From positions 1 through 35,523 of the forward strand of contig CAZMJP010000005.1 in assembly GCA_964566895.1 (NCBI GenBank): a stretch of 35,523 nucleotides of DNA, written 5' to 3'. This document shows positions 5,321-17,893 of the stretch, in pieces. Below the pieces are notes generated by a model. The model saw nothing but the letters and a program-made list of their open reading frames with translations. It had not been told where the DNA came from and did not search any database. This DNA comes from an uncultured Gammaproteobacteria bacterium. Lineage in GTDB: Bacteria; Patescibacteriota; Patescibacteriia; UBA2591; UBA6264. A program made the position numbers and the translations under genes. Each line of letters begins with the position of its first letter. Within the stretch, counting starts at the first letter, position 1.

Positions 5321-6601
5321 TTAAATAAAATTTTTAGCTCTTTTCGCCGCTTGCTTAAGAATCTGCTCTTCCCCTTCCACTTTTCCGTCTCTCATTAAGA
5401 TTCTGCCCTGGCAAATGACATCGGTAACACAATTCCCATTACAAGAATAAACTATATTTGAGATTAAATTATGACCAGGGGCAAAACAAACCTGATTTAA
5501 GTTTAGTAAAATTAAATCAGCTAGATAACCCTGCTTAATTTGACCAACTCTTATTTTCAAAGCTTGTCCCGCATTCTCTGTCGTTGCCTTGAAAATTTCT
5601 AAACCTGGAGCTACTGCCGGGTCCATTTCTTTTACTTTCTGTAAAAGAGAGGCGAATTTCATCTCTTCAAACAAATCCAAATTGTTATTGGAAGCCGCGC
5701 CATCTGTTCCTAAACAAACGTTGATCTTTGCTCTCTTTACTCTCAAATAAGGAAAAATCCCCGAAACCAATTTCATTTCAGAACAGGGAGTATAAACCAA
5801 ACTGCATTTTCTCTGACTCAAAATCCCAGTCTCCCTCTCAGAAAGCCAAAGAGCATGAGCTAAAAGGCAATTTCTATTTAGAAATCCAATTTTGTCAAGA
5901 TATTCAACTGGCCGAAGTTTATACTTTTTTAAACAATCGCTAACCTCCTTTTGCGTTTCCGATAAATGAATGTGCAAAAGCAGATTGTTCGCCTGGGCAA
6001 AATTTTTCGCCCAAACTAAATTTTCCCGACTAACACTATAAATGGCATGAGGCGCTATGGCGAAGGTTACCGTTTTGAAAATTTTCCTTTTAACATCTTG
6101 CCAGAGCTTCTCCACGTATTCCCGACGGCCCAAGGGAAAAGAATCCAAAATGACTAAACCGACAACAGCGCGCAGCCCCATCTCCTTAATCGCTTCAATC
6201 GCCGCCGGTTGAAACCAGTACATATCGTTAAAACAAGTCGTCCCGGTTCTAATCATTTCCAAACAAGCCAATTTAGTCCCCCAATAAATGTCGTCGGGGG
6301 AAAACTTTCGTTCAATGGGCCAAATCTTCTTTTCAAGCCAATCCTTTAAGGGCAAATCATCGCTGTACCCCCGCAAAAGAGACATTGCCGCGTGAACATG
6401 GGCGTTAACCAATCCGGGTAAAACAGCTTTTTGCCCGCGGCCATCAATTCTTTGGTCAGCTTTTCTGTTTATTCCAGGACTGATTTTTTCTATTTTCCCG
6501 TCTCGGATGAAGATATCGGTTTTCCTACTCTTTAAAATTACATTTTTTATTAGAAAAGTCGTCTCTCCCCCGGCAGTTATACTCCTTTTAGGATAAAACA
6601 T
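5321..6601 (-). CDS. mtaD: MTA/SAH deaminase-like amidohydrolase
   Basis: PGLVNAHVH, APHAIY, HIHLSET, LAHA, LGTDGAASNNNLDLFEE; next to a nucleoside phosphorylase gene. Confidence 0.78.
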   Translation of the reverse strand: MFYPKRSITAGGETTFLIKNVILKSRKTDIFIRDGKIEKISPGINRKADQRIDGRGQKAVLPGLVNAHVHAAMSLLRGYSDDLPLKDWLEKKIWPIERKFSPDDIYWGTKLACLEMIRTGTTCFNDMYWFQPAAIEAIKEMGLRAVVGLVILDSFPLGRREYVEKLWQDVKRKIFKTVTFAIAPHAIYSVSRENLVWAKNFAQANNLLLHIHLSETQKEVSDCLKKYKLRPVEYLDKIGFLNRNCLLAHALWLSERETGILSQRKCSLVYTPCSEMKLVSGIFPYLRVKRAKINVCLGTDGAASNNNLDLFEEMKFASLLQKVKEMDPAVAPGLEIFKATTENAGQALKIRVGQIKQGYLADLILLNLNQVCFAPGHNLISNIVYSCNGNCVTDVICQGRILMRDGKVEGEEQILKQAAKRAKNFI

Positions 6602-9864: not shown

Positions 9865-12510
9865 ATGTCTGAACCGGTCTGGCACAATTTATCAATAAAA
9901 AACGTTTTGGAGCTCGCCCAAACCAATAAAGACGGACTTTTTTTCAAGGAAATTGACGAACGGCTGAAAAAACACGGCCTCAACAGACTGCCGAAAGAAA
10001 AGAAATTTTCTATCTTGAAAACCCTTTTAACCCAATTTAAAAGTCCCTTGGTTTATATTTTGATAATCGCCGCCGCTGTCACTTTAGCTTTGAAAGAATT
10101 TATTGATCTGATTGTAATTTTAGCCGCGGTCTTAATCAACGCCGGGGTTGGTTTTTCCCAAGAATACAAAGCGGAAAAGATTTTCAAGCACCTTAAAAAT
10201 TTAATCCAGTATAAAGCTCGAGTTTTACGTCAAGGATCTCCTGATAACCCATCGTCAACCGAAATAAAACAAGAATACGTTATTGACAGCCAGAAATTGG
10301 TGCCGGGCGATATTATTATTTTGGAAGCCGGCGACATTATTCCGGCTGATGCCCGACTAATTGAAACCCATAACTTAGAAACTAAAGAAGCGGCGCTAAC
10401 CGGCGAGTCTCTTCCCTCTTTTAAAAAAAATGAGATTTTAAAACCGGACACTCCTTTGGCCGACCGAAAAAATATGGTTTATTCGGGCACTAATGTGGCC
10501 AAGGGCAAGGCAAAAGCGGTGATAATTGCCACTGGTTCAAAAACCGAGTTGGGTAAAATCGCCAATCTAATTAGAACTACTGAGGAGGATAAAACACCCT
10601 TGCAAAAAAAAATCTCCAGTTTAGCCGAAACCTTAGGTATAATCATCGCCGGCCTATCTTTAATGCTCTTTATCGCCGGTTTAATTATTGGTCGACCGTT
10701 TCTGGAAATGTTGCTTGTTTCCGTGGCCGTGGCCGTAGCCGGCATTCCGGAAGGTCTGCCTATCGCGGTAACGGTTTGTTTGGCTGTCGGCATGCAGAGG
10801 ATATTAAAAAAGAAAGCTCTAATCAAAAAACTAATTGCCGCGGAAACACTTGGATCAATTACGGTTATTGCTTTGGACAAGACAGGGACATTGACTGAAG
10901 GTAAAATGGCCGTAACTCATCTCATCCCCTATAAAGATGCCTCAAACAAAGACCTGCTAAAAGTCGGATTGCTCTGCAGTAATATCATTATTGAAAACTC
11001 GGAGCAAGAATTAAAAAATTGGAAAATGACCGGCGACTCAACGGAAATCGCCTTAGTTCAGGAAGCCGTTCAAGCGGGATTAGAAAGAAAAAAACTGCTC
11101 AGCAATTATCAACGGATCGACGAGATACCCTTTGAATCAGAAACAATGCGCATGGCCACCTTGTCTAAAATGAGATCTAAAAAAAATCAATCTGCTCTTT
11201 TTATTAAAGGAGCTCCGGAGCGAATCCTTGATATTTGTTCACTAACAATTGAAGAAAAAAGGGAGATAAAAAAAGAATTTGAGCAACTGACTGACAGAGG
11301 TTTAAGGGTTTTGGCTTTTGGACAGAAAATCTTTTACCCCCAAAATAAAGAAAACCTGTCTGAAAACGACTTAAATAATATTAAATTTATCGGTCTAATC
11401 GCGCTGAGAGATCCTTTAAGACCGGAAACTAAAAAAGCCGTCAACGACTGCAAATTGGCTGGGATTAGGTCAGTTCTTGTCACCGGAGATCATCAACTAA
11501 CTACCCGAGCCATCGCTCAAGAAATAGGATTAATAAGACAAGAAGAAAAAATTTTACAGGGCGGTGATATAGACAGACTTTCTGACGAGGATTTAAGAAA
11601 AAAATTGAAAAAAACTAACGTTTTTGCTCGAGTTGAGCCAAAACACAAGATTAGAATCGTTGACGCTTTGCAAGCCCAGGGCGAAGTAGTAGCTATGACT
11701 GGCGACGGAGTTAATGACGCCCCGGCCATCAAGTCGGCTGATATTGGTCTGGCTCTTGGTTCTGGGTCAGAAATAACTAAAGAGACGGCGGACATCGTTC
11801 TTTTAGACGATAATTTTAAAACCATTGTTGAAGCAATCAAGTCCGGGCGAGATATTTTTAATAACATCAAAAAAATCGTCCTTTTCCTTTTAAGTGACAC
11901 CTTTACTGAATTTATTCTCATCGGCGGATCCCTTTTTTTGGGGTTACCCTTACCTGTTTTAGCCGGGCAAATTCTTTGGATTAACATTATTGAAGATACC
12001 TTGCCGGCAATGGCTCTTTCTTATGAAAAAGAAGGGAGAGAAATTCTTAAAGAAAGGGCTCGCGGTCATAAAACCAAGATATTGGACAAAAAAATGAAAT
12101 TTCTTATTTTGGTTATCGGTGTTATAACCGACCTAATCCTCTTAGGACTGTTTTTACTCCTTTATTATCAGGGGAAGGATATCGCTTACATTCGGACAAT
12201 GATTTCTGTCGGATTGGGAATCGATACTTTGTTTTATGTTTTTGCCTGTAAAAATTTGAAAAAAATAATCTGGAAATACAATCCTTTTAATAATCTGTTT
12301 TTAGATTTCAGCGTTGTTTTTGGTTGGGGAATGCTTTTTGTCGCTCTTTATGTCCCGTTTTTTCAAAAAATTCTTCGTCTCGTCCCGCTCCATAGAAATG
12401 ATTGGCTGATTATGGTAGGATTAGGATTGATTGAAATTGCCTTAATTGAATTAGGAAAATTTTTCTTCACTCCTTGTCCGATCCGCCGGTTAAGGGACAG
12501 GGAATTGTGA
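9865..12510 (+). CDS. P2-type cation-transporting P-type ATPase
   Basis: LTGES, PEGLP, DKTGTLT, KGAPE, TGD, MTGDGVNDAPA; several TM helices. Confidence 0.95.
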   Translation: MSEPVWHNLSIKNVLELAQTNKDGLFFKEIDERLKKHGLNRLPKEKKFSILKTLLTQFKSPLVYILIIAAAVTLALKEFIDLIVILAAVLINAGVGFSQEYKAEKIFKHLKNLIQYKARVLRQGSPDNPSSTEIKQEYVIDSQKLVPGDIIILEAGDIIPADARLIETHNLETKEAALTGESLPSFKKNEILKPDTPLADRKNMVYSGTNVAKGKAKAVIIATGSKTELGKIANLIRTTEEDKTPLQKKISSLAETLGIIIAGLSLMLFIAGLIIGRPFLEMLLVSVAVAVAGIPEGLPIAVTVCLAVGMQRILKKKALIKKLIAAETLGSITVIALDKTGTLTEGKMAVTHLIPYKDASNKDLLKVGLLCSNIIIENSEQELKNWKMTGDSTEIALVQEAVQAGLERKKLLSNYQRIDEIPFESETMRMATLSKMRSKKNQSALFIKGAPERILDICSLTIEEKREIKKEFEQLTDRGLRVLAFGQKIFYPQNKENLSENDLNNIKFIGLIALRDPLRPETKKAVNDCKLAGIRSVLVTGDHQLTTRAIAQEIGLIRQEEKILQGGDIDRLSDEDLRKKLKKTNVFARVEPKHKIRIVDALQAQGEVVAMTGDGVNDAPAIKSADIGLALGSGSEITKETADIVLLDDNFKTIVEAIKSGRDIFNNIKKIVLFLLSDTFTEFILIGGSLFLGLPLPVLAGQILWINIIEDTLPAMALSYEKEGREILKERARGHKTKILDKKMKFLILVIGVITDLILLGLFLLLYYQGKDIAYIRTMISVGLGIDTLFYVFACKNLKKIIWKYNPFNNLFLDFSVVFGWGMLFVALYVPFFQKILRLVPLHRNDWLIMVGLGLIEIALIELGKFFFTPCPIRRLRDREL

Positions 12511-12558
12511 AAAGCGACATAGACATTTTCAATTTTTATTATTAACGCTTTTACTCTT

Positions 12559-13851
12559 ATGAAATATATACTTCTAAGAGATATTCAAAAATATCTTGAA
12601 CAATCCGTGATTTTGAGGGGTTGGATTTTTAATTTTCGCTGTTCCGGCTCGATTTACTTCTTACAATTCCGCGACGGCACAGGTGAAATTCAAGCCGTAA
12701 TTTCAAAAAAGGAGGTCAATAAAAATTTTTGGTCTGTTTGTAAAAAATTGACTATCGAGTCCAGCCTTGAAATAACCGGCAGGATTTATTCTGAAAAACG
12801 TTCGCCCTACGGTTATGAGATGGCTGTCAAAAAAATAAAAATCATCTCTCTATCTCAAGAATATCCCATTAGTAAAAAAGCTCACGGAATTGATTTTTTA
12901 ATGGACTATCGCCATCTTTGGATTCGTTCCAATCGTCAAGCGGCTATTCTGAAAATCAGGGATGAGATCGTTTTTGCCCTTCGCGTTTTTTTAAGAAACC
13001 AGGGCTTTGTTTTAACTGACGCCCCCATTTTAACTCCAACCAGCTGTGAAGGAACAACCACCCTTTTCTCGACTAAATATTTTAATCAAAAGGCTTATTT
13101 GTCTCAATCAGGCCAACTTTATCTTGAAGCCCTAATTTACTCTTTAGGAAAAGTTTACGATTTTGGCCCGACTTTTAGGGCGGAAAAGTCAAAAACTCGG
13201 CGTCACTTAACCGAGTTTTGGATGATGGACGCTGAATCCGCCTTTGTTGAACATAAGGAAAATATGAAAATCCAGGAAAATCTAATTTGTTTCGTTGTCC
13301 AACAAATCTTAAAAAATTGTCAGAAAGAATTAACCCTTCTGGGAAGAAATTTAAAACTGTTAAAAAATATAAAATCGCCGTTTCCCAAAATCACCTATGA
13401 CCAAATAATCAAAAAACTTCAACAAAGGGGAATCAAAATTAAATGGGGAGACGACCTTGGCGGCGATGAGGAGACCGTCATCTCAAAAATGTTTGATAAA
13501 CCGGTGTTTATTGAAAAATATCCGGGGGAAATCAAAACCTTTTATATGGAACCAGATCCAAAAAATCCAAAATTAGTTTTAAATAACGACTTAATCGCCC
13601 CGGAAGGCCATGGAGAAATCATCGGCGGCTCCCAAAGAATTGATGACTTAAAAATCCTAAAACAAAAAGTAAAGGAATTTAAATTACCAAAGAAATCATT
13701 AGAATGGTACATTGATTTACGGCGCTACGGCTCAGTGCCCCACTCTGGATTTGGTTTAGGTCTTGAAAGAACCGTGGCTTGGCTTTGCGGTTTAGACCAC
13801 GTTCGAGAGACCATTCCTTTCCCTAGATTAATTAACAGGTTGAACCCCTAA
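12559..13851 (+). CDS. asnS: Asparagine--tRNA ligase
   Basis: OB fold FLQFRDGTG, RHLWIRS, CEGTTTLF, YLSQSGQLY, FRAEKSKTRRHLTEFW, GEIIGGSQR, GFGLGLER. Confidence 0.94.
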   Translation: MKYILLRDIQKYLEQSVILRGWIFNFRCSGSIYFLQFRDGTGEIQAVISKKEVNKNFWSVCKKLTIESSLEITGRIYSEKRSPYGYEMAVKKIKIISLSQEYPISKKAHGIDFLMDYRHLWIRSNRQAAILKIRDEIVFALRVFLRNQGFVLTDAPILTPTSCEGTTTLFSTKYFNQKAYLSQSGQLYLEALIYSLGKVYDFGPTFRAEKSKTRRHLTEFWMMDAESAFVEHKENMKIQENLICFVVQQILKNCQKELTLLGRNLKLLKNIKSPFPKITYDQIIKKLQQRGIKIKWGDDLGGDEETVISKMFDKPVFIEKYPGEIKTFYMEPDPKNPKLVLNNDLIAPEGHGEIIGGSQRIDDLKILKQKVKEFKLPKKSLEWYIDLRRYGSVPHSGFGLGLERTVAWLCGLDHVRETIPFPRLINRLNP

Positions 13852-13917
13852 CCCCATTGGAAGCCCGCTTTCCGAAAAAAAGCGGTAAAAACCAACGATT
13901 TCTTGCTTCTAATGGGA
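13852..13917. repeat. Inverted-repeat element, copy A
   Basis: CCCCATTGGAAGC (13852-13864) with GCTTCTAATGGGA (13905-13917); internal CCGCTTT/AAAGCGG hairpin. Confidence 0.7.
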
Positions 13918-13945
13918 TTGACATCTCTTAAATTTATGTTATTAT
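13918..13945 (+). promoter_or_regulatory. Promoter of the Asn leader / tRNA-Asn unit
   Basis: TTGACA (13918-13923), 16-nt spacer ending TGt, TATTAT (13940-13945); ATG 7 nt downstream. Confidence 0.75.
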
Positions 13946-13952
13946 TAAAACA

Positions 13953-14015
13953 ATGTTAGAACGAGTTCCCCAAAACTTAAATAATAACAACAATAATCGT
14001 CTCCGGCGGGTCTGA
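13953..14015 (+). CDS. Asn-rich attenuator leader peptide MLERVPQNLNNNNNNRLRRV (not in ORF track)
   Basis: 7 Asn codons within 8 codons (AAC TTA AAT AAT AAC AAC AAT AAT); stop codon overlaps the 5' arm of the antiterminator. Confidence 0.85.
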   Translation: MLERVPQNLNNNNNNRLRRV

Positions 14016-14050
14016 TTGATTTTTAGTAAAATTGTTGCGAACAGACCCGC
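14006..14050 (+). promoter_or_regulatory. Antiterminator helix of the attenuator
   Basis: GCGGGTCTG (14006-14014) is the perfect reverse complement of CAGACCCGC (14042-14050), which overlaps the terminator 5' arm. Confidence 0.82.
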
Positions 14051-14074
14051 TCTGAAAGGCGGGATTTTTTATTT
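14046..14074 (+). terminator. Intrinsic terminator (attenuator)
   Basis: CCCGCT-ctgaaa-GGCGGG followed by ATTTTTTATTT. Confidence 0.82.
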
Positions 14075-14103
14075 AGAGCGGTTTACGCCGTCCCCCGCTA
14101 AAT

Positions 14104-14176
14104 TCTAGGGTAATTCAATTGGTAGAATGCGCCGCTGTTAACGGCGAAGTTACTGGTTCGAATCCAGTCCCTAGAG
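14104..14176 (+). tRNA. tRNA-Asn(GTT), CCA not encoded
   Basis: TCTAGGG TA ATTC AATTGGTA GAAT G CGCCG CT-GTT-AA CGGCG AAGTT ACTGG TTCGAAT CCAGT CCCTAGA G; G73 discriminator. Confidence 0.95.
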
Positions 14177-14326
14177 TTTAGCGGGGAACTAACGAGGTTA
14201 TAAAAATCCAAATTTCCTCCCCTAAAATTTCTTAACCGCGTCAAACCGGATAACCGTCTAACTGAACCAGAAAGGGGGATAATCTTTTATCAACTTCTTA
14301 ATCATCCTTTTGTTTTTTCTTATCTA

Positions 14327-14335
14327 TGCTATAAT
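14327..14335 (+). promoter_or_regulatory. Extended -10 promoter candidate upstream of aspS
   Basis: TGCTATAAT. Confidence 0.5.
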
Positions 14336-14457
14336 CCCTAAGGGTAAACCAAATGGAAGAATTATTCTTATTTTGGTGAATTCTAATAGAATTCCAGGTT
14401 TTGCTCATATTTTCACCAAAAAGTAAAAAAACAAAAAGGTTTTTAATTAGAAAAACT

Positions 14458-15861
14458 ATGGAACGGACGCAAAATATAGAAACAATTAAAAAAATCGGGC
14501 AAAAAATTGGCCTCTGCGGCTGGGTCAATAGCCGCAGAAATATGGGTAAAATTGTTTTTATTGATTTAAGAGATCGCTCTGGTTTAATCCAAATAGTACT
14601 CAATCCTTCTGAACTTGACCAAGAATCGCAAAGGACGGCAAGGGAAATCCGTCCCGAGTTCGTCGTCGAAATAGAAGGAATAGTCAACCAAAGACCCAAA
14701 AACCAAATTAATAAAAATCTGCCCACCGGAGCAATAGAAATAGCGGCTAAAAAATTGACTATTTTAAACCAGGCCAAGACTCCGCCGTTTGAAATTGACA
14801 ACGAAACCTTAAGAGCCAATGAAGAACTTCGTTTAAAATATCGCTATTTGGATCTGCGTCACGAAAGAATGAAAAACAATCTAATTCTCCGACATCGAGT
14901 CATTAAGTTTATCCGCGATTATCTGGACAAAAAAGGCTTTTTGGAAATTGAAACGCCAATTTTAACCAAAGGCACGCCTGAGGGGGCGCGGGAATTTATC
15001 GTTCCTTCCCGGCTTTATCCCGGTAAATTTTATGTTCTGCCTCAGGCGCCTCAGCAATTTAAACAACTCCTTATGGTCGCCGGCATCGAGAAATATTTCC
15101 AAATTGCCCGCTGTTTCCGCGACGAAGACACCCGCGGCGACCGCCAACCGGAATTCACCCAACTGGACTTGGAAATGAGCTTTGTCAACCAAAACGACAT
15201 TTTAAGCTTAACCGAAGAACTATTTATCGCCCTGGTTAAAAAGATAACTCCCGATAAAAAAATATCCGTCGTCCCATTTCCACGACTGACCTTTGAACAG
15301 ACGATGGAAAAATATAAAACCGACAAACCTGATTTAAGGAAAGACAAAAAAAATCCGGACGAGCTGGCCTTTTGCTTTATCACCGATTTTCCTTTGTTTG
15401 AATATTCAAAAACAGAGAAAAAACTGGTTTCCGTTCACCATCCTTTTACCTCTCCCCAAAAACAAGACATCCCTCTTTTGGATAAAAACCCCCTAAAAGT
15501 AAAATCTCAACAATACGACTTTGTCTGTAACGGTTATGAATTGGCCGGGGGGTCAATCAGAATTCACCAAAGAGAACTCCAGGAAAAAATCTTCAAAATT
15601 TTAAAACTATCCGATAAAGAAGTGAAAAGACGCTTTGGACACTTGCTTGAAGCTTTTGAATACGGCGCTCCGCCGCATGGCGGCATCGCCCCCGGTTTAG
15701 ACCGGGTAATTATGATCCTAGCTAACGAGCCCAATATTCGTGAAGTTATCCCTTTTGCTAAAACAGCCGATGCTAAAGACCTAATGATGGACGCGCCCAG
15801 CGAACTACCAAAAAAACAACTCAAAGAAGCGCATGTAAGAATCATAAATCATAAACCATAA
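14458..15861 (+). CDS. aspS: Aspartate--tRNA ligase, bacterial type lacking the GAD insertion
   Basis: FIDLRDRSG, YRYLDLR, TPEGAREF, QIARCFRDED, PEFTQLDLEMSF, HHPFT, GAPPHGGIAPGLDR; ATG 14458 preferred over TTG 14401. Confidence 0.96.
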   Translation: MERTQNIETIKKIGQKIGLCGWVNSRRNMGKIVFIDLRDRSGLIQIVLNPSELDQESQRTAREIRPEFVVEIEGIVNQRPKNQINKNLPTGAIEIAAKKLTILNQAKTPPFEIDNETLRANEELRLKYRYLDLRHERMKNNLILRHRVIKFIRDYLDKKGFLEIETPILTKGTPEGAREFIVPSRLYPGKFYVLPQAPQQFKQLLMVAGIEKYFQIARCFRDEDTRGDRQPEFTQLDLEMSFVNQNDILSLTEELFIALVKKITPDKKISVVPFPRLTFEQTMEKYKTDKPDLRKDKKNPDELAFCFITDFPLFEYSKTEKKLVSVHHPFTSPQKQDIPLLDKNPLKVKSQQYDFVCNGYELAGGSIRIHQRELQEKIFKILKLSDKEVKRRFGHLLEAFEYGAPPHGGIAPGLDRVIMILANEPNIREVIPFAKTADAKDLMMDAPSELPKKQLKEAHVRIINHKP

Positions 15862-15874
15862 ACCAACCAAATCA

Positions 15875-16771
15875 ATGAGGATTTTAAAATTATCTTTGCA
15901 AAATTCATTCCGCAATTTCTGGCTTTCCTTGGCAAGTATTGTTATTATGCTTTTAATGCTTCTTTCTTTGAGCTTGATTTACTGTCTTAATGTTATCGGA
16001 CAAGAAACATTAACCTATTTTAAAGATAAAATGGACTTGGGGATTTACTTAAAACAAAATATTAACGAGAGTACTGTTAATTTACTCAGAACAGAATTGG
16101 AAAGTATGGACGAGATCAAAGAAATACGCTACTTGACTCCGGAACAGTCTCTTGAAGAATTTGAACAAAAGCATCGGAATGACCAACTCATTTTAAAATC
16201 CCTAAGGGAATTAAAAGAAAATCCTCTCGGGGCAACTATTACCTTGAAGTTTTATAACCCGGAAGATTATCAAAAAGTCCTCTCAGTAATCAGCCAACCA
16301 GAATATCAGGACTTAATTCAAAACCAAGATTTTTACGATTATCAAAAGCTCATCCGGGGTTTTAGTAAATTCAATCAAAAAATCTCCTACCTCGGACTGG
16401 GGATCAGCGGGGTTTTTATCTTCGTCGCTATTTTAGTAATTTTCAACACTATCAAATTAGGCGCTTTATCTCAACAAAAACAAATTAAAATAATGAAATT
16501 AGTCGGGGCTACTTCTCGATTCGTCCGGGCTCCCTTCTTAATCCAAAGCTGTTTTTACTCTTTAGTTGCCTGGATTTTAGATATAGGGATTCTCGTTGCC
16601 GCAGCTGTTTCCGTCCAGCCGTACATTCAGCAACTCTTAGAATTAAATTTTGATTTTCTTTTGTATTTAAAAACCGACGGCTTAGTATTCTTAATTTGCC
16701 TTTTAATTTTCTCCTTGTTTGTCTCAACTATTAGTAGCGGTTTAGCTATTCGAAAATACTTGAAAATTTAG
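15875..16771 (+). CDS. ftsX: Cell division permease FtsX
   Basis: TM1, extracellular loop with ENPL, IFNTIKL, IMKLVGAT..FVRAPF, C-terminal RKYLK. Confidence 0.9.
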   Translation: MRILKLSLQNSFRNFWLSLASIVIMLLMLLSLSLIYCLNVIGQETLTYFKDKMDLGIYLKQNINESTVNLLRTELESMDEIKEIRYLTPEQSLEEFEQKHRNDQLILKSLRELKENPLGATITLKFYNPEDYQKVLSVISQPEYQDLIQNQDFYDYQKLIRGFSKFNQKISYLGLGISGVFIFVAILVIFNTIKLGALSQQKQIKIMKLVGATSRFVRAPFLIQSCFYSLVAWILDIGILVAAAVSVQPYIQQLLELNFDFLLYLKTDGLVFLICLLIFSLFVSTISSGLAIRKYLKI

Positions 16772-16800
16772 TTTAGTGTTCAACTCTTGCGTCTAAAAGT

Positions 16801-16872
16801 GGCCCGATAGCCAAGTAGTAAGGCAACTGTCTGCAAAACAGTTATACGCGGGTGCAATTCCCGCTCGGGCCT
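16801..16872 (+). tRNA. tRNA-Cys(GCA), CCA not encoded, atypical D/T loops
   Basis: GGCCCGA TA GCC AAGTAGTAA GGC A ACTGT CT-GCA-AA ACAGT TATAC GCGGG TGCAATT CCCGC TCGGGCC T; U73 discriminator. Confidence 0.9.
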
Positions 16873-16957
16873 TTAAAAATAATTTTCACTTTGGTGTTTC
16901 CGCCAGTGGCAGACAGGCTAATCTTCTCTTGGCCTTTTTGTTTTTAATTTAAATTTA

Positions 16958-16966
16958 TGGTAAAAT
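16958..16966 (+). promoter_or_regulatory. Extended -10 promoter, probable leaderless transcript
   Basis: TG-G-TAAAAT 6 nt before the ATG at 16973. Confidence 0.55.
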
Positions 16967-16972
16967 AAAAAT

Positions 16973-17893
16973 ATGTCGGGAAAAATTCCAAAACTCGTGG
17001 CCATTGACGCGCCAGCCGCATTGCACCGGGCTTGGCACGCCTTACCAAAATTAACCGACCCAAAAGGCCAAACGATTAACGCCGTCTATGGTTTTACTGT
17101 TCTATTGCTTAAACTGCTTCGTGAGCAAAAACCGGACTACTTAGCCGCGTGTTTCGATACCAAAGCCCCAACCTTTCGGCATAAAAAATATAAAAATTAT
17201 AAAGCGACGAGAATACCTCAGCCGCAAGAGTTTTACGACCAAATACCTCTGACCAAACGGATTATCCGGGGTTTTAATATTCCAATATTTGCCTTAGACG
17301 GTTTTGAAGCCGACGATTTGATCGCCGCCATAATCAAAGAACAAAAACAAAAAATCTCCGGTTTAAAATCTTTAATCGTCACTGGCGACCTTGATTTGCT
17401 CCAGTTGGCCGATGAACAGACCTCTATTTATTTTCTCCACCAGGGTTTAAATCAAATTAAAATTTACGGGCCGGATGAAGTGGGGGAACGGTTCGGGCTT
17501 AAGCCGAAACAACTGATCGACTTCAAGGCCCTGCGCGGCGACGCCTCTGATAATATAAAAGGCGTGCCTGGCATTGGAGAAAAAACCGCCCTTGATTTAA
17601 TAAAAAAATTCAATAATTTGGAGAACATTTACGCCTATCTGAGAAAAAACAAAAAACAAAAACTTATTAAAACAACTATCGCTGAAATCCTCCAGAAAAA
17701 CAAAAAACGGGCTACTTTAGCTAAAGAGTTGGTCACCATTAAGCAAGATATAAAAGATTTAAACCCAAAAGAAATTATTCCTTTTGACAGACCGAATCGC
17801 GAAAAAATAACCCAAATTTTCAAAGAATTCGGTTTTAAAAGTTTAATCAAAAAATTAGGGGAGGACATCTCTCTGCAAAATAAATTATTCTAA
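16973..17893 (+). CDS. Stand-alone 5'-3' exonuclease/flap endonuclease (Pol I N-terminal domain)
   Basis: NAVYGF, TFRH..Y..YKATR, GFEADD, TGDLDLLQL, GDASDNIKGVPGIGEKTA; no polymerase domain. Confidence 0.92.
   Translation: MSGKIPKLVAIDAPAALHRAWHALPKLTDPKGQTINAVYGFTVLLLKLLREQKPDYLAACFDTKAPTFRHKKYKNYKATRIPQPQEFYDQIPLTKRIIRGFNIPIFALDGFEADDLIAAIIKEQKQKISGLKSLIVTGDLDLLQLADEQTSIYFLHQGLNQIKIYGPDEVGERFGLKPKQLIDFKALRGDASDNIKGVPGIGEKTALDLIKKFNNLENIYAYLRKNKKQKLIKTTIAEILQKNKKRATLAKELVTIKQDIKDLNPKEIIPFDRPNREKITQIFKEFGFKSLIKKLGEDISLQNKLF

Follow-up and report, generated by a model that had tools for sequence, protein, structure and literature searches.

Organisation of the locus

The window analysed here comprises positions 1-35,523 (35,523 nucleotides, nt; forward strand) of contig CAZMJP010000005.1 of assembly GCA_964566895.1, titled as an uncultured Gammaproteobacteria bacterium and placed by GTDB in the Patescibacteriota. 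Our subject is a short open reading frame (ORF) with a run of asparagine codons which, together with an intrinsic terminator, lies upstream of a tRNA-Asn gene. The order on the + strand is asnS, promoter, leader ORF, terminator, tRNA-Asn(GTT), aspS. A first-pass annotation, made from the letters of the window, had read this arrangement as a leader-peptide attenuator sensing asparagine and controlling the tRNA gene. In what follows, G000 is the genome holding the window, other G numbers are the genomes of relatives and L numbers are examined loci.

The leader promoter (TTGACA-16-TATTAT, with TG before the -10 element; 13918-13945, + strand) agrees with the consensus at 11 of 12 positions. It stands where the first-pass annotation had placed it and is the best of 14 promoter-like sites in a scan of 12000-17500. 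The leader ATG starts 7 nt after the -10 hexamer and opens an ORF of 20 codons on the same strand (13953-14015; MLERVPQNLNNNNNNRLRRV followed by a stop codon). The ORF contains seven Asn codons within eight, namely codon 8 (AAC, 13974-13976) and the six consecutive codons 10-15 (AAT AAT AAC AAC AAT AAT, 13980-13997), with AAT and AAC mixed as originally described. The stop codon (14013-14015) is overlapped by the 5' arm of a putative antiterminator, GGCGGGTCTG (14005-14014, + strand). Its 3' arm, CAGACCCGCT (14042-14051, + strand), shares its last six bases with the 5' arm of the terminator. The helix formed by the two arms has 10 base pairs (bp), one more than had been claimed, the added pair being G-U. 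The GC-rich terminator with its U-tract is present as announced: a CCCGCT/GGCGGG stem (14046-14051/14058-14063, + strand) with a CTGAAA loop, followed by a T-run (14065-14070). The tRNA-Asn(GTT) gene (14104-14176, + strand; Rfam 67 bits; 14103-14177 according to ARAGORN) begins 33 nt past this terminator, near the initial estimate of about 30 nt. It has no encoded CCA and belongs to a type, called B below, with U3-A70 and a U11-A24 pair in the D-stem.

Synthetase profiles identify the two flanking genes, in agreement with the first description. Upstream, asnS (asparagine--tRNA ligase, 12559-13851, + strand) scores 546.9 bits with NF003037 (cut-off 414) and carries Pfam tRNA-synt_2 and OB domains. 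Downstream, aspS (aspartate--tRNA ligase of the bacterial type, + strand) occupies an ORF at 14401-15861 whose exact start is uncertain, and matches NF001750 in two stretches (678.9 bits). It is preceded by an extended -10 element, TGCTATAAT (TGnTATAAT, 14327-14335, + strand), read directly in the window and in relatives, where it is conserved; the promoter scanner skipped this element since no -35 is present. The G000 AspRS has only 486 residues for a 590-position profile, and the usual inserted domain is seemingly missing.

The G000 assembly comprises 668,551 bases in 36 contigs and is 96% complete. Its six frames hold 4,049 ATG-started ORFs of 10-40 amino acids, of which a single one has at least six Asn in eight residues: the leader described here. 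ARAGORN finds 41 tRNAs in this assembly, and the only tRNA-Asn among them is the gene adjoining the leader; a count of its copies had been proposed by the first-pass annotation. The survey for cognate-codon leaders at other tRNA genes that it had also suggested was run in G000; none of the other 40 tRNAs has a comparable leader ORF upstream, and a looser filter (at least 3 cognate residues in 8) returned weak matches only, lacking a start codon or a run, for example a start-less open frame upstream of tRNA-His.

Two competing helices

The antiterminator and terminator helices are mutually exclusive, strand 14046-14051 being common to both. In the window, the antiterminator hairpin has an energy of -19.0 kcal/mol and the terminator hairpin of -10.4 kcal/mol, and the antiterminator is the minimum-energy fold of the free leader. 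When the first 75 nt are masked, mimicking a ribosome located at the stop codon, the terminator folds. Another competing helix had been proposed between CAACAAT in the Asn run (13988-13994) and ATTGTTG (14031-14037). The bases are indeed present, but the helix lies outside the minimum-energy folds.

Recurrence in related genomes

A DNA search of 61 related genomes gave matches in 19, mostly to the tRNA alone; the leader was matched in G012, G002, G004 and G030. These four units include a promoter, an ORF with an Asn run (MFKQIVRNLNNDNNNRLWRI, MFKQIVQNLNDNDNRLWRT, MFKQTFCQLNNNNNNNNDRHWRT and MLKELNLKLNNNNNNNLHRRA), both antiterminator arms, a terminator and tRNA-Asn, and the leader 5' arm ends at the stop codon in each. 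The arms change jointly among these relatives (GTCTG:CAGAC, ATTTG:CAAAT, ACTT:AAGT).

Two covariance models were used, R1 built from 4 sequences and R2 from 10. Within the family, R1 matched 6 of 21 genomes, all six with an Asn leader beside tRNA-Asn and with no other match. Within the order, R2 matched 14 of 55 genomes; 13 have an Asn leader beside tRNA-Asn and the remaining match is in G047. The same model matched 13 of the 151 genomes of a class sample, G000 included. Eight of the other 12 (G124, G178, G141, G155 with two copies, G080, G127, G192 and G131) have an Asn leader beside tRNA-Asn, while G151, G128, G125 and G064 show no Asn run and no tRNA. A phylum sample of 151 genomes gave six matches and no new leader beside tRNA-Asn: besides G000 and G151, it returned G328, G319 and G253, which are plain terminators, and G294, considered below. 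These tallies are lower bounds because diverged leaders are lost by the models, such as that of G058 (MAMVNNNSNSNNP), seen by eye only.

An ATG-started ORF with an Asn run is found in 22 of the 23 aligned relatives. Outside this run the peptide is not conserved between families, in line with a role as leader peptide. In most of a set of 22 relatives, the -10 element ends 6-10 nt ahead of the leader ATG and is accompanied by a TTGACA-like -35, and no Shine-Dalgarno sequence occurs between the -10 and the ATG of these 22 leaders, except perhaps in G046 and G022. The spacing between promoter and ATG suggests that the leader mRNA is probably leaderless, transcription starting at the AUG or within a few bases of it.

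Covariation and geometry

The alternative helix was examined in 23 leaders aligned to R2 (10 pairs, 220 cells). Ninety per cent of the cells are paired and compensatory changes occur at 9 of the 10 pairs (44 cells), with 21 further pair types, these counts being biased toward the helix since the alignments were fitted to the structure of the model. The covariation score is 0.541 compared to 0.189 for shuffled alignments, and none of 500 shuffles reaches any of the five measures. When the 3' partners are slid by 1-3 columns, just 31-52% of the cells pair. A smaller set of 10 leaders gives 92% of paired cells and compensatory changes at 5 of the 10 pairs. RNAalifold predicts the same helix unprompted, and the model-free set of 20 loci described below agrees. 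The terminator helix is paired in 95% of the cells in 10 relatives, but four of its six pairs are invariant within the order; at the level of the class its sequence differs while the hairpin and T-run persist. The first-pass annotation had made its reading depend on the conservation of the Asn run and of the helices, and had proposed a test of covariation: Asn run, terminator and alternative helix are all kept in relatives, and the alternative helix covaries.

The position of the stop codon relative to the 5' arm is also constrained. With the first base of the arm as reference, the codon begins at -7 to +14 nt in 21 of 22 leaders, mostly at +8; the exception is one of the two G155 copies (G155a), whose paralogue is at +8. 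In the leaders that have the ORF, the last Asn codon starts 7-19 nt and the first of the run 16-34 nt upstream of the 5' arm. On an mRNA, the footprint of a ribosome extends some 12-15 nt past the A site. With such a footprint, a terminating ribosome would cover the 5' arm and a ribosome stalled early in the run would leave it free.

Nearly all leaders have an Arg codon (CGN) after the Asn run, mostly as AAC CGN (13998-14000 in the window). RNAalifold pairs the CCG at this codon with a CGG of the terminator 3' arm, and the constraint could bear on the RNA or on the peptide.

Independent pattern scan

The association was also sought with a pattern in one genome per species of all prokaryotes. 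The pattern consisted of four Asn codons, a T-run and the tRNA-Asn anticodon loop at suitable spacings, and required neither an ORF nor the alternative helix. It matched at least 120 stretches, and 80 loci were read among the matches listed. A real tRNA-Asn is present at the match in at least 20 loci (20 of these 80); the other 60, with titles from many phyla, were taken for chance matches. An ATG-started ORF of 13-23 codons carries the Asn run in 19 of the 20 tRNA-Asn loci among the matches listed, and in the twentieth the ORF starts with GTG. Their titles refer to the Patescibacteria group (4), Candidatus Magasanikbacteria/Magasanikiibacteriota (5), Saccharibacteria (2, L116 and L149), Komeilibacteria (1) and Dojkabacteria (1), the others being a 'bacterium' (1) and metagenome bins titled 'uncultured Gammaproteobacteria bacterium' (6). 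The tRNAs of these six bins resemble that of L134, from a Patescibacteria single-cell genome. Two of the 20 repeat known leaders, L114 having the peptide of G004 and L164 that of G127.

For each locus, the 3' arm of the terminator was removed and the antiterminator was called when at least 80% of the bases of the terminator 5' arm paired upstream, at lower energy than the terminator hairpin. Sixteen of the 20 loci among the matches listed pass this test; for 19 of the 20, shuffling the upstream part gave an equally good result no more than 3 times in 100. L119 fails, with 100 of 100 shuffles; the terminator hairpin there amounts to only -0.1 kcal/mol and we suspect that another T-run was mistaken for that of the terminator. 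In 18 of the 20 loci among the matches listed, the T-run directly follows the terminator hairpin; L119 and L155 are the exceptions. A narrower Asn pattern applied at the phylum level matched one of 301 genomes (G281), with a spacing setting that excluded G000 itself.

The gene probably controlled by the leader

The genes around the leader vary. The order asnS, leader, tRNA-Asn, aspS is found in G000, G012, G002, G004 and G009. In G016 and G030, asnS, leader and tRNA-Asn are followed by a terminator and unrelated genes. Neither synthetase lies within about 1.5 kb of the leader in G049, G045, G037 and G058; tRNA-Asn is followed by a terminator in G049 and by an opposite-strand gene in G058. Since the neighbours vary while tRNA-Asn stays, tRNA-Asn is, in the gene orders compared, the constant partner of the putative leader. 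The first-pass annotation had remarked that the tRNA would be a passenger if relatives placed the same leader directly before synthetase genes; instead, the leader stays with tRNA-Asn where the neighbours differ.

Control of asnS was considered and rejected: the gene precedes the leader on the same strand, and a separate promoter serves the leader. In G012 and G002, the -35 of this promoter overlaps the stop codon of asnS. In family members without the leader, asnS and aspS are separated either by nothing or by a gene of about 100 codons. This conserved ORF occupies the place of the leader and tRNA in G003, G013, G007, G008 and G006 (L055-L059).

The alternative that fares best makes a downstream protein gene, here aspS, the real target, with the tRNA as a passenger in an operon for Asn- and Asp-tRNA supply. 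The gene order shared by the five family genomes is in its favour, as are the presence of an aspS-like gene after the tRNA in G050, which belongs to another family, and the occurrence of one or two Asp codons in or beside the Asn run in four of these five genomes. Moreover, no + strand terminator was found between tRNA-Asn and aspS in the window (scan of 14178-14400), and readthrough into aspS is possible in G000. However, the five genomes are close kin and count for about one lineage, and aspS is not downstream in G016, G030, G049, G045, G037 and G058, where terminators or opposite-strand genes are found. In addition, aspS has the conserved extended -10 element described above, and Ser, Gly, Arg and Leu codons also break Asn runs elsewhere, so that the Asp codons are maybe tolerated noise. 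We regard aspS as an improbable primary target.

Still less probable is that the ORF and terminator form a self-contained small gene, encoding a micropeptide or a small RNA, next to a tRNA-Asn transcribed separately. A promoter and a terminator do belong to the unit; the terminator of G016 is about 120 nt away from the tRNA, with a TATGCTATAAT-like element in the interval, and tRNA genes in these genomes attract insertions. However, G002 and G030 have no more than 2-3 nt between T-run and tRNA, too little for a separate promoter, so that the tRNA can be reached there only by readthrough of the terminator. The peptide is kept only in the Asn run and in the part constrained by the helix, the association is specific to tRNA-Asn, and the helix that would disable the terminator covaries, a feature for which a plain terminator has no need.

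A third possibility is sensing without translation, tRNA-Asn or a protein binding the AAY repeats as in a T-box-like or protein-dependent attenuator. Pairing of AAY triplets with the GUU anticodon is conceivable, and the terminator/antiterminator logic does not by itself prove a role for the ribosome. Against this, no Rfam family, T-box included, was matched at gathering score or at E-values up to 10. The ATG is fixed at 6-10 nt from the -10, the stop codon is at the 5' arm in 21 of 22 leaders and the AAY run is in frame in 22 of 23; only translation accounts for these three constraints together, and we consider a translation-free device highly improbable. Finally, the Asn run might be a low-complexity AAT/AAC stretch that happens to lie beside an ordinary terminator of asnS. 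The AT-rich DNA and the non-significant fold of the single sequence could be invoked for this explanation, but it can be dismissed in view of the dozens of genomes showing the element, with covariation, and of its uniqueness among the 4,049 ORFs.

Proposed mechanism

Every comparative test run backs the reading of the element as an Asn leader-peptide attenuator, with three amendments to the first version of it: the tRNA is often a second copy, untranslated RNA is expected to read through, and the message is probably leaderless. On this evidence from genome comparison, the leader/terminator/antiterminator unit is real and conserved and not a product of chance. From the parts, their conservation, the antiterminator covariation, the geometry and the link to tRNA-Asn, all of which were computed, we infer that the ORF is translated, that ribosome and polymerase are coupled and that the device responds to Asn-tRNA(Asn). 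It is thus probably a ribosome-mediated transcription attenuator sensing the supply of Asn-tRNA(Asn) and controlling the transcription of tRNA-Asn.

According to this model, transcription would begin at the leader AUG or a few bases from it, and a ribosome would translate the 20-codon leader, closely trailing the polymerase. When Asn-tRNA(Asn) is plentiful, the ribosome would reach the stop codon and cover the antiterminator 5' arm (14005-14014). The strand 14046-14051 would then be free to pair with 14058-14063, and the resulting terminator would end transcription at the T-run, before the tRNA. When Asn-tRNA(Asn) is scarce, the Asn codons, 10-31 nt ahead of the 5' arm, would stall the ribosome. 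The antiterminator, as the more stable helix, would then form and the polymerase would read into tRNA-Asn and, in G000, probably on into aspS. Supply of the tRNA reading the control codons would in this way be subject to negative feedback.

Several observations weigh against this model. The fold of the single leader sequence is no better than that of shuffled sequences (z = -1.16), so that its support rests on the comparison with relatives, for which the bias of the pair counts has been mentioned. With 6 bp, one of them G-U, and -10.4 kcal/mol, the terminator stem is short. A 1:2 (pause/anti-antiterminator) helix is absent and RNAalifold finds no conserved helix upstream of the antiterminator, so the classical behaviour, in which no translation gives termination, is not predicted. 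Untranslated leader RNA is instead predicted to read through, and termination would need a ribosome at the stop codon; the 1:2 helix belongs to the trp type and not to every attenuator. In G124 (L038, 1471-1600) a shift of one base separates the frame of the ATG from that of the Asn run, with an A7 homopolymer between the two; the stop codon in the frame of the run is at its usual place, and the break could reflect an assembly error, slippage or frameshifting. Related elements also occur away from tRNA-Asn. That of G047 (MSGYQKLNNLIIIGRDG; L036, reverse strand, 1501-1622) precedes a protein gene, as does that of G151 (L044, peptide MMRNCNIMFVNFIIFTTLGGSV), which scores with the leader model; both may be attenuators for other signals. 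In G294, which belongs to another class, an Asn leader (MKKYFSKNNGNNNNRAI) and terminator are followed 124 nt further on by tRNA-Leu(CAG) (L051, 1441-1831), and no tRNA-Asn is present within the 3 kb fetched around this leader. Lastly, eight of the 13 leader-bearing genomes of the order also have a tRNA-Asn gene without leader, making the physiological need less evident, and raising the amount of tRNA-Asn would be of no obvious help if free asparagine were limiting.

Two types of tRNA-Asn

A pattern for the tRNA-Asn anticodon and T arms matched 40 of the 55 genomes of the order, and 33 new sites were fetched. All but one, cut by a contig end, gave a tRNA-Asn, and these 32 genes are all of a canonical type, type A. 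They start with TCCGG, have a D-arm GTAGCTCA...GAGC, often encode CCA and often follow a sigma-factor-like gene. No Asn-run leader was found at the 32 type A genes examined. Leader-linked type B genes of the order start with TCT (U3-A70) and have U11-A24 in the D-stem, G at position 26 and C at position 27. At the class level the leader-linked tRNAs keep U11-A24, with one possible exception in G192. Both types may be neighbours, as in G080, where the leader has a type A gene directly in front of it and a type B gene directly behind.

The 13 leader-bearing genomes of the order can be separated according to their type A gene. It is intact in eight (G009, G012, G030, G037, G045, G046, G049 and G050), interrupted in the anticodon loop in one (G022) and was not found in four (G000, G002 and the 75%-complete G004 and G016). 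In G000, regular expressions for both halves of the gene and blastn-short with the 32 type A sequences did not find a canonical tRNA-Asn in the 96% complete assembly. The sole tRNA-Asn found thus sits behind the terminator in G000, and likewise in G002 (98% complete, 10 contigs). Judging from these gene sets, the device would control an extra tRNA-Asn in most relatives. The first-pass statement that the leader regulates the tRNA reading its own codons holds in that the leader precedes a tRNA-Asn, but this tRNA is not always the only one, since 8 of the 13 have a second.

A suspected tRNA-Asp in G022 was rejected; it is the type A tRNA-Asn, interrupted after CTGT of the anticodon loop (L096, G022:C2:203250-203450, about 81-201). 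The insert may be an intron.

Insertions at tRNA genes

The tRNA-Asn of the window is flanked by an inverted repeat of about 11 nt (14093-14103/14177-14187) that extends its acceptor stem (14093-14187, + strand). The fold of 14072-14200 has an energy of -57.1 kcal/mol (z = -5.49; none of 200 shuffles is as good). Similar flanks are observed in G004 and at the inner tRNA of G022. The repeat could serve as a stem for processing, or else represent the two ends of a cassette inserted here.

Between the terminator and the tRNA-Asn called by ARAGORN, several loci contain 5' fragments of an older tRNA-Asn (starting with tctggggtagttt) together with a GC-rich insert. They are found at L035 (G022, reverse strand, about 1620-1830), L037, L039, L045, L014, L008 and L002 (1686-1760). 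The rest of the old tRNA-Asn, with ATT at the anticodon, lies behind the new tRNA in G022, and G012 has a 3' remnant behind its tRNA. From these remnants, the regulated tRNA-Asn seems to have been repeatedly replaced by inserted copies.

Insertions are also seen at other tRNA genes. On contig C23 of G000 (5657-6068), an ORF of about 90 codons of the GIY-YIG type is inserted in a tRNA-Phe gene; the first 22 nt of this tRNA are duplicated upstream and a GC-rich hairpin follows the first copy. GIY-YIG-like ORFs also end just upstream of canonical tRNA-Asn genes in G011, G003, G012 and G049. A small mobile element seems to use tRNA genes as homing sites in this group.

Asparagine supply

The gene set of G000 includes asnS, one aspS and gatB, and AsnA and AsnB were not found in this genome. 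Bdellovibrio, Thermus and Deinococcus have two routes to Asn-tRNA(Asn), AsnRS on the one hand and a non-discriminating AspRS with GatCAB on the other (PMC4206432). The same gene set occurs in G000. Regulation of the tRNA is not described in the accessible part of that source for these two-route bacteria, whereas in G000 tRNA-Asn has a leader.

In the order, gatB is over the cut-off in 54 of 55 genomes and asnS in 39 of 55. The latter include 12 of the 13 leader-bearing genomes, the thirteenth being G030, in which a contig end truncates asnS. None of the 15 other genomes of the order, with asnS below the cut-off, has the leader. This is only a hint that the leader is tied to the presence of asnS, because the genomes lacking asnS come from few families. 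Strong Asn_synthase matches occur in 13 of the 55 genomes of the order, and since four of the 13 leader-bearing genomes are among them, the leader is not tied to a lack of AsnB.

These facts fit either of two readings: homeostasis of Asn-tRNA(Asn), or an inducible tRNA serving the tRNA-dependent route when imported asparagine fails. It is possible, though on balance unlikely, that the attenuated type B gene provides a second, inducible tRNA-Asn with a specialised role, expressed when the standing supply of Asn-tRNA(Asn) gives out and accompanied by aspS where this gene follows. This tRNA would be the scaffold for asparagine synthesis by a non-discriminating AspRS together with GatCAB, or else a reserve for times when the canonical one is depleted. 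It would have spread over several Patescibacteria-titled lineages and become the sole tRNA-Asn of some genomes (G000, G002).

Relation to known attenuators

Leader-peptide attenuators are known for the enterobacterial trp, his, leu, thr, phe and ilv operons, and E. coli pheST has a leader peptide. The T-box riboswitch works independently of translation, by direct binding of uncharged tRNA. Bacterial tRNA genes are commonly regarded as housekeeping genes under growth-rate control.

At gathering score, only the four tRNAs of the window match Rfam 15. At E-values up to 10, region 13850-14110 gives only tRNAs and sub-threshold noise, Trp_leader reaching 13.8 bits (gathering score 41) on the terminator part only. 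The first-pass annotation knew of no described Asn leader peptide or ribosome-attenuated tRNA gene. The full-text literature searched, with most subscription journals and supplements outside its coverage, likewise contained no Asn leader peptide and no tRNA gene controlled by a leader peptide, an earlier description being possible. The same literature held no paper joining Patescibacteria, the candidate phyla radiation (CPR) or Saccharibacteria with leader peptides.

The element shares with the trp, his, leu, thr, phe and ilv attenuators a short ORF in which codons for one amino acid are repeated in a row, an intrinsic terminator and an alternative helix sharing a strand with it, the position of the ribosome deciding between the folds (the general mechanism is described in PMC1183508, in the part available). 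It differs from attenuators of the trp and his type in that the controlled gene would be a tRNA and not an enzyme, asparagine would be sensed, and only two competing helices are present without a 1:2 helix. The leader mRNA is apparently leaderless and matches no Rfam leader family. In bacilli, a histidine leader peptide is found upstream of hisS paralogues and hisZ (PMC2965389); the accessible text of this source mentions neither tRNA genes nor asparagine. As with the leaders of hisS/hisZ (PMC2965389, same part) and of pheST, the codon run here would control the charging machinery rather than biosynthesis. However, the product in those cases is a protein while here it would be a tRNA, the loop closing on the very molecule that is sensed. 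A resemblance to the T-box is that the charging state of one tRNA would be sensed through a choice between terminator and antiterminator upstream of genes supplying that amino acid, but no T-box match was obtained here and the conserved start and stop codons point to translation. The proposed mechanism is of a known kind; what is new is the tRNA target, the putative sensing of asparagine, the two-helix logic with readthrough as the predicted default, and the probably leaderless start.

If the model is true, this would be the most direct feedback on tRNA supply that can be imagined, the ribosome gauging a charged tRNA and the response being more of that tRNA. Asparagine would join the amino acids sensed by attenuation, and the leader would offer a simple portable sensor of Asn-tRNA(Asn). 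Should the type B gene indeed act as an inducible second tRNA-Asn, the unit would amount to a 'biosynthetic operon' for an amino acid, with an RNA as its regulated product. The coexistence of two types of tRNA-Asn, one of them regulated, raises the question of how the direct route to Asn-tRNA(Asn) and the tRNA-dependent one share the labour. For the organisms concerned, the model would mean that classical attenuation, in an apparently leaderless form, operates in ultra-small uncultivated bacteria with few recognisable regulators.

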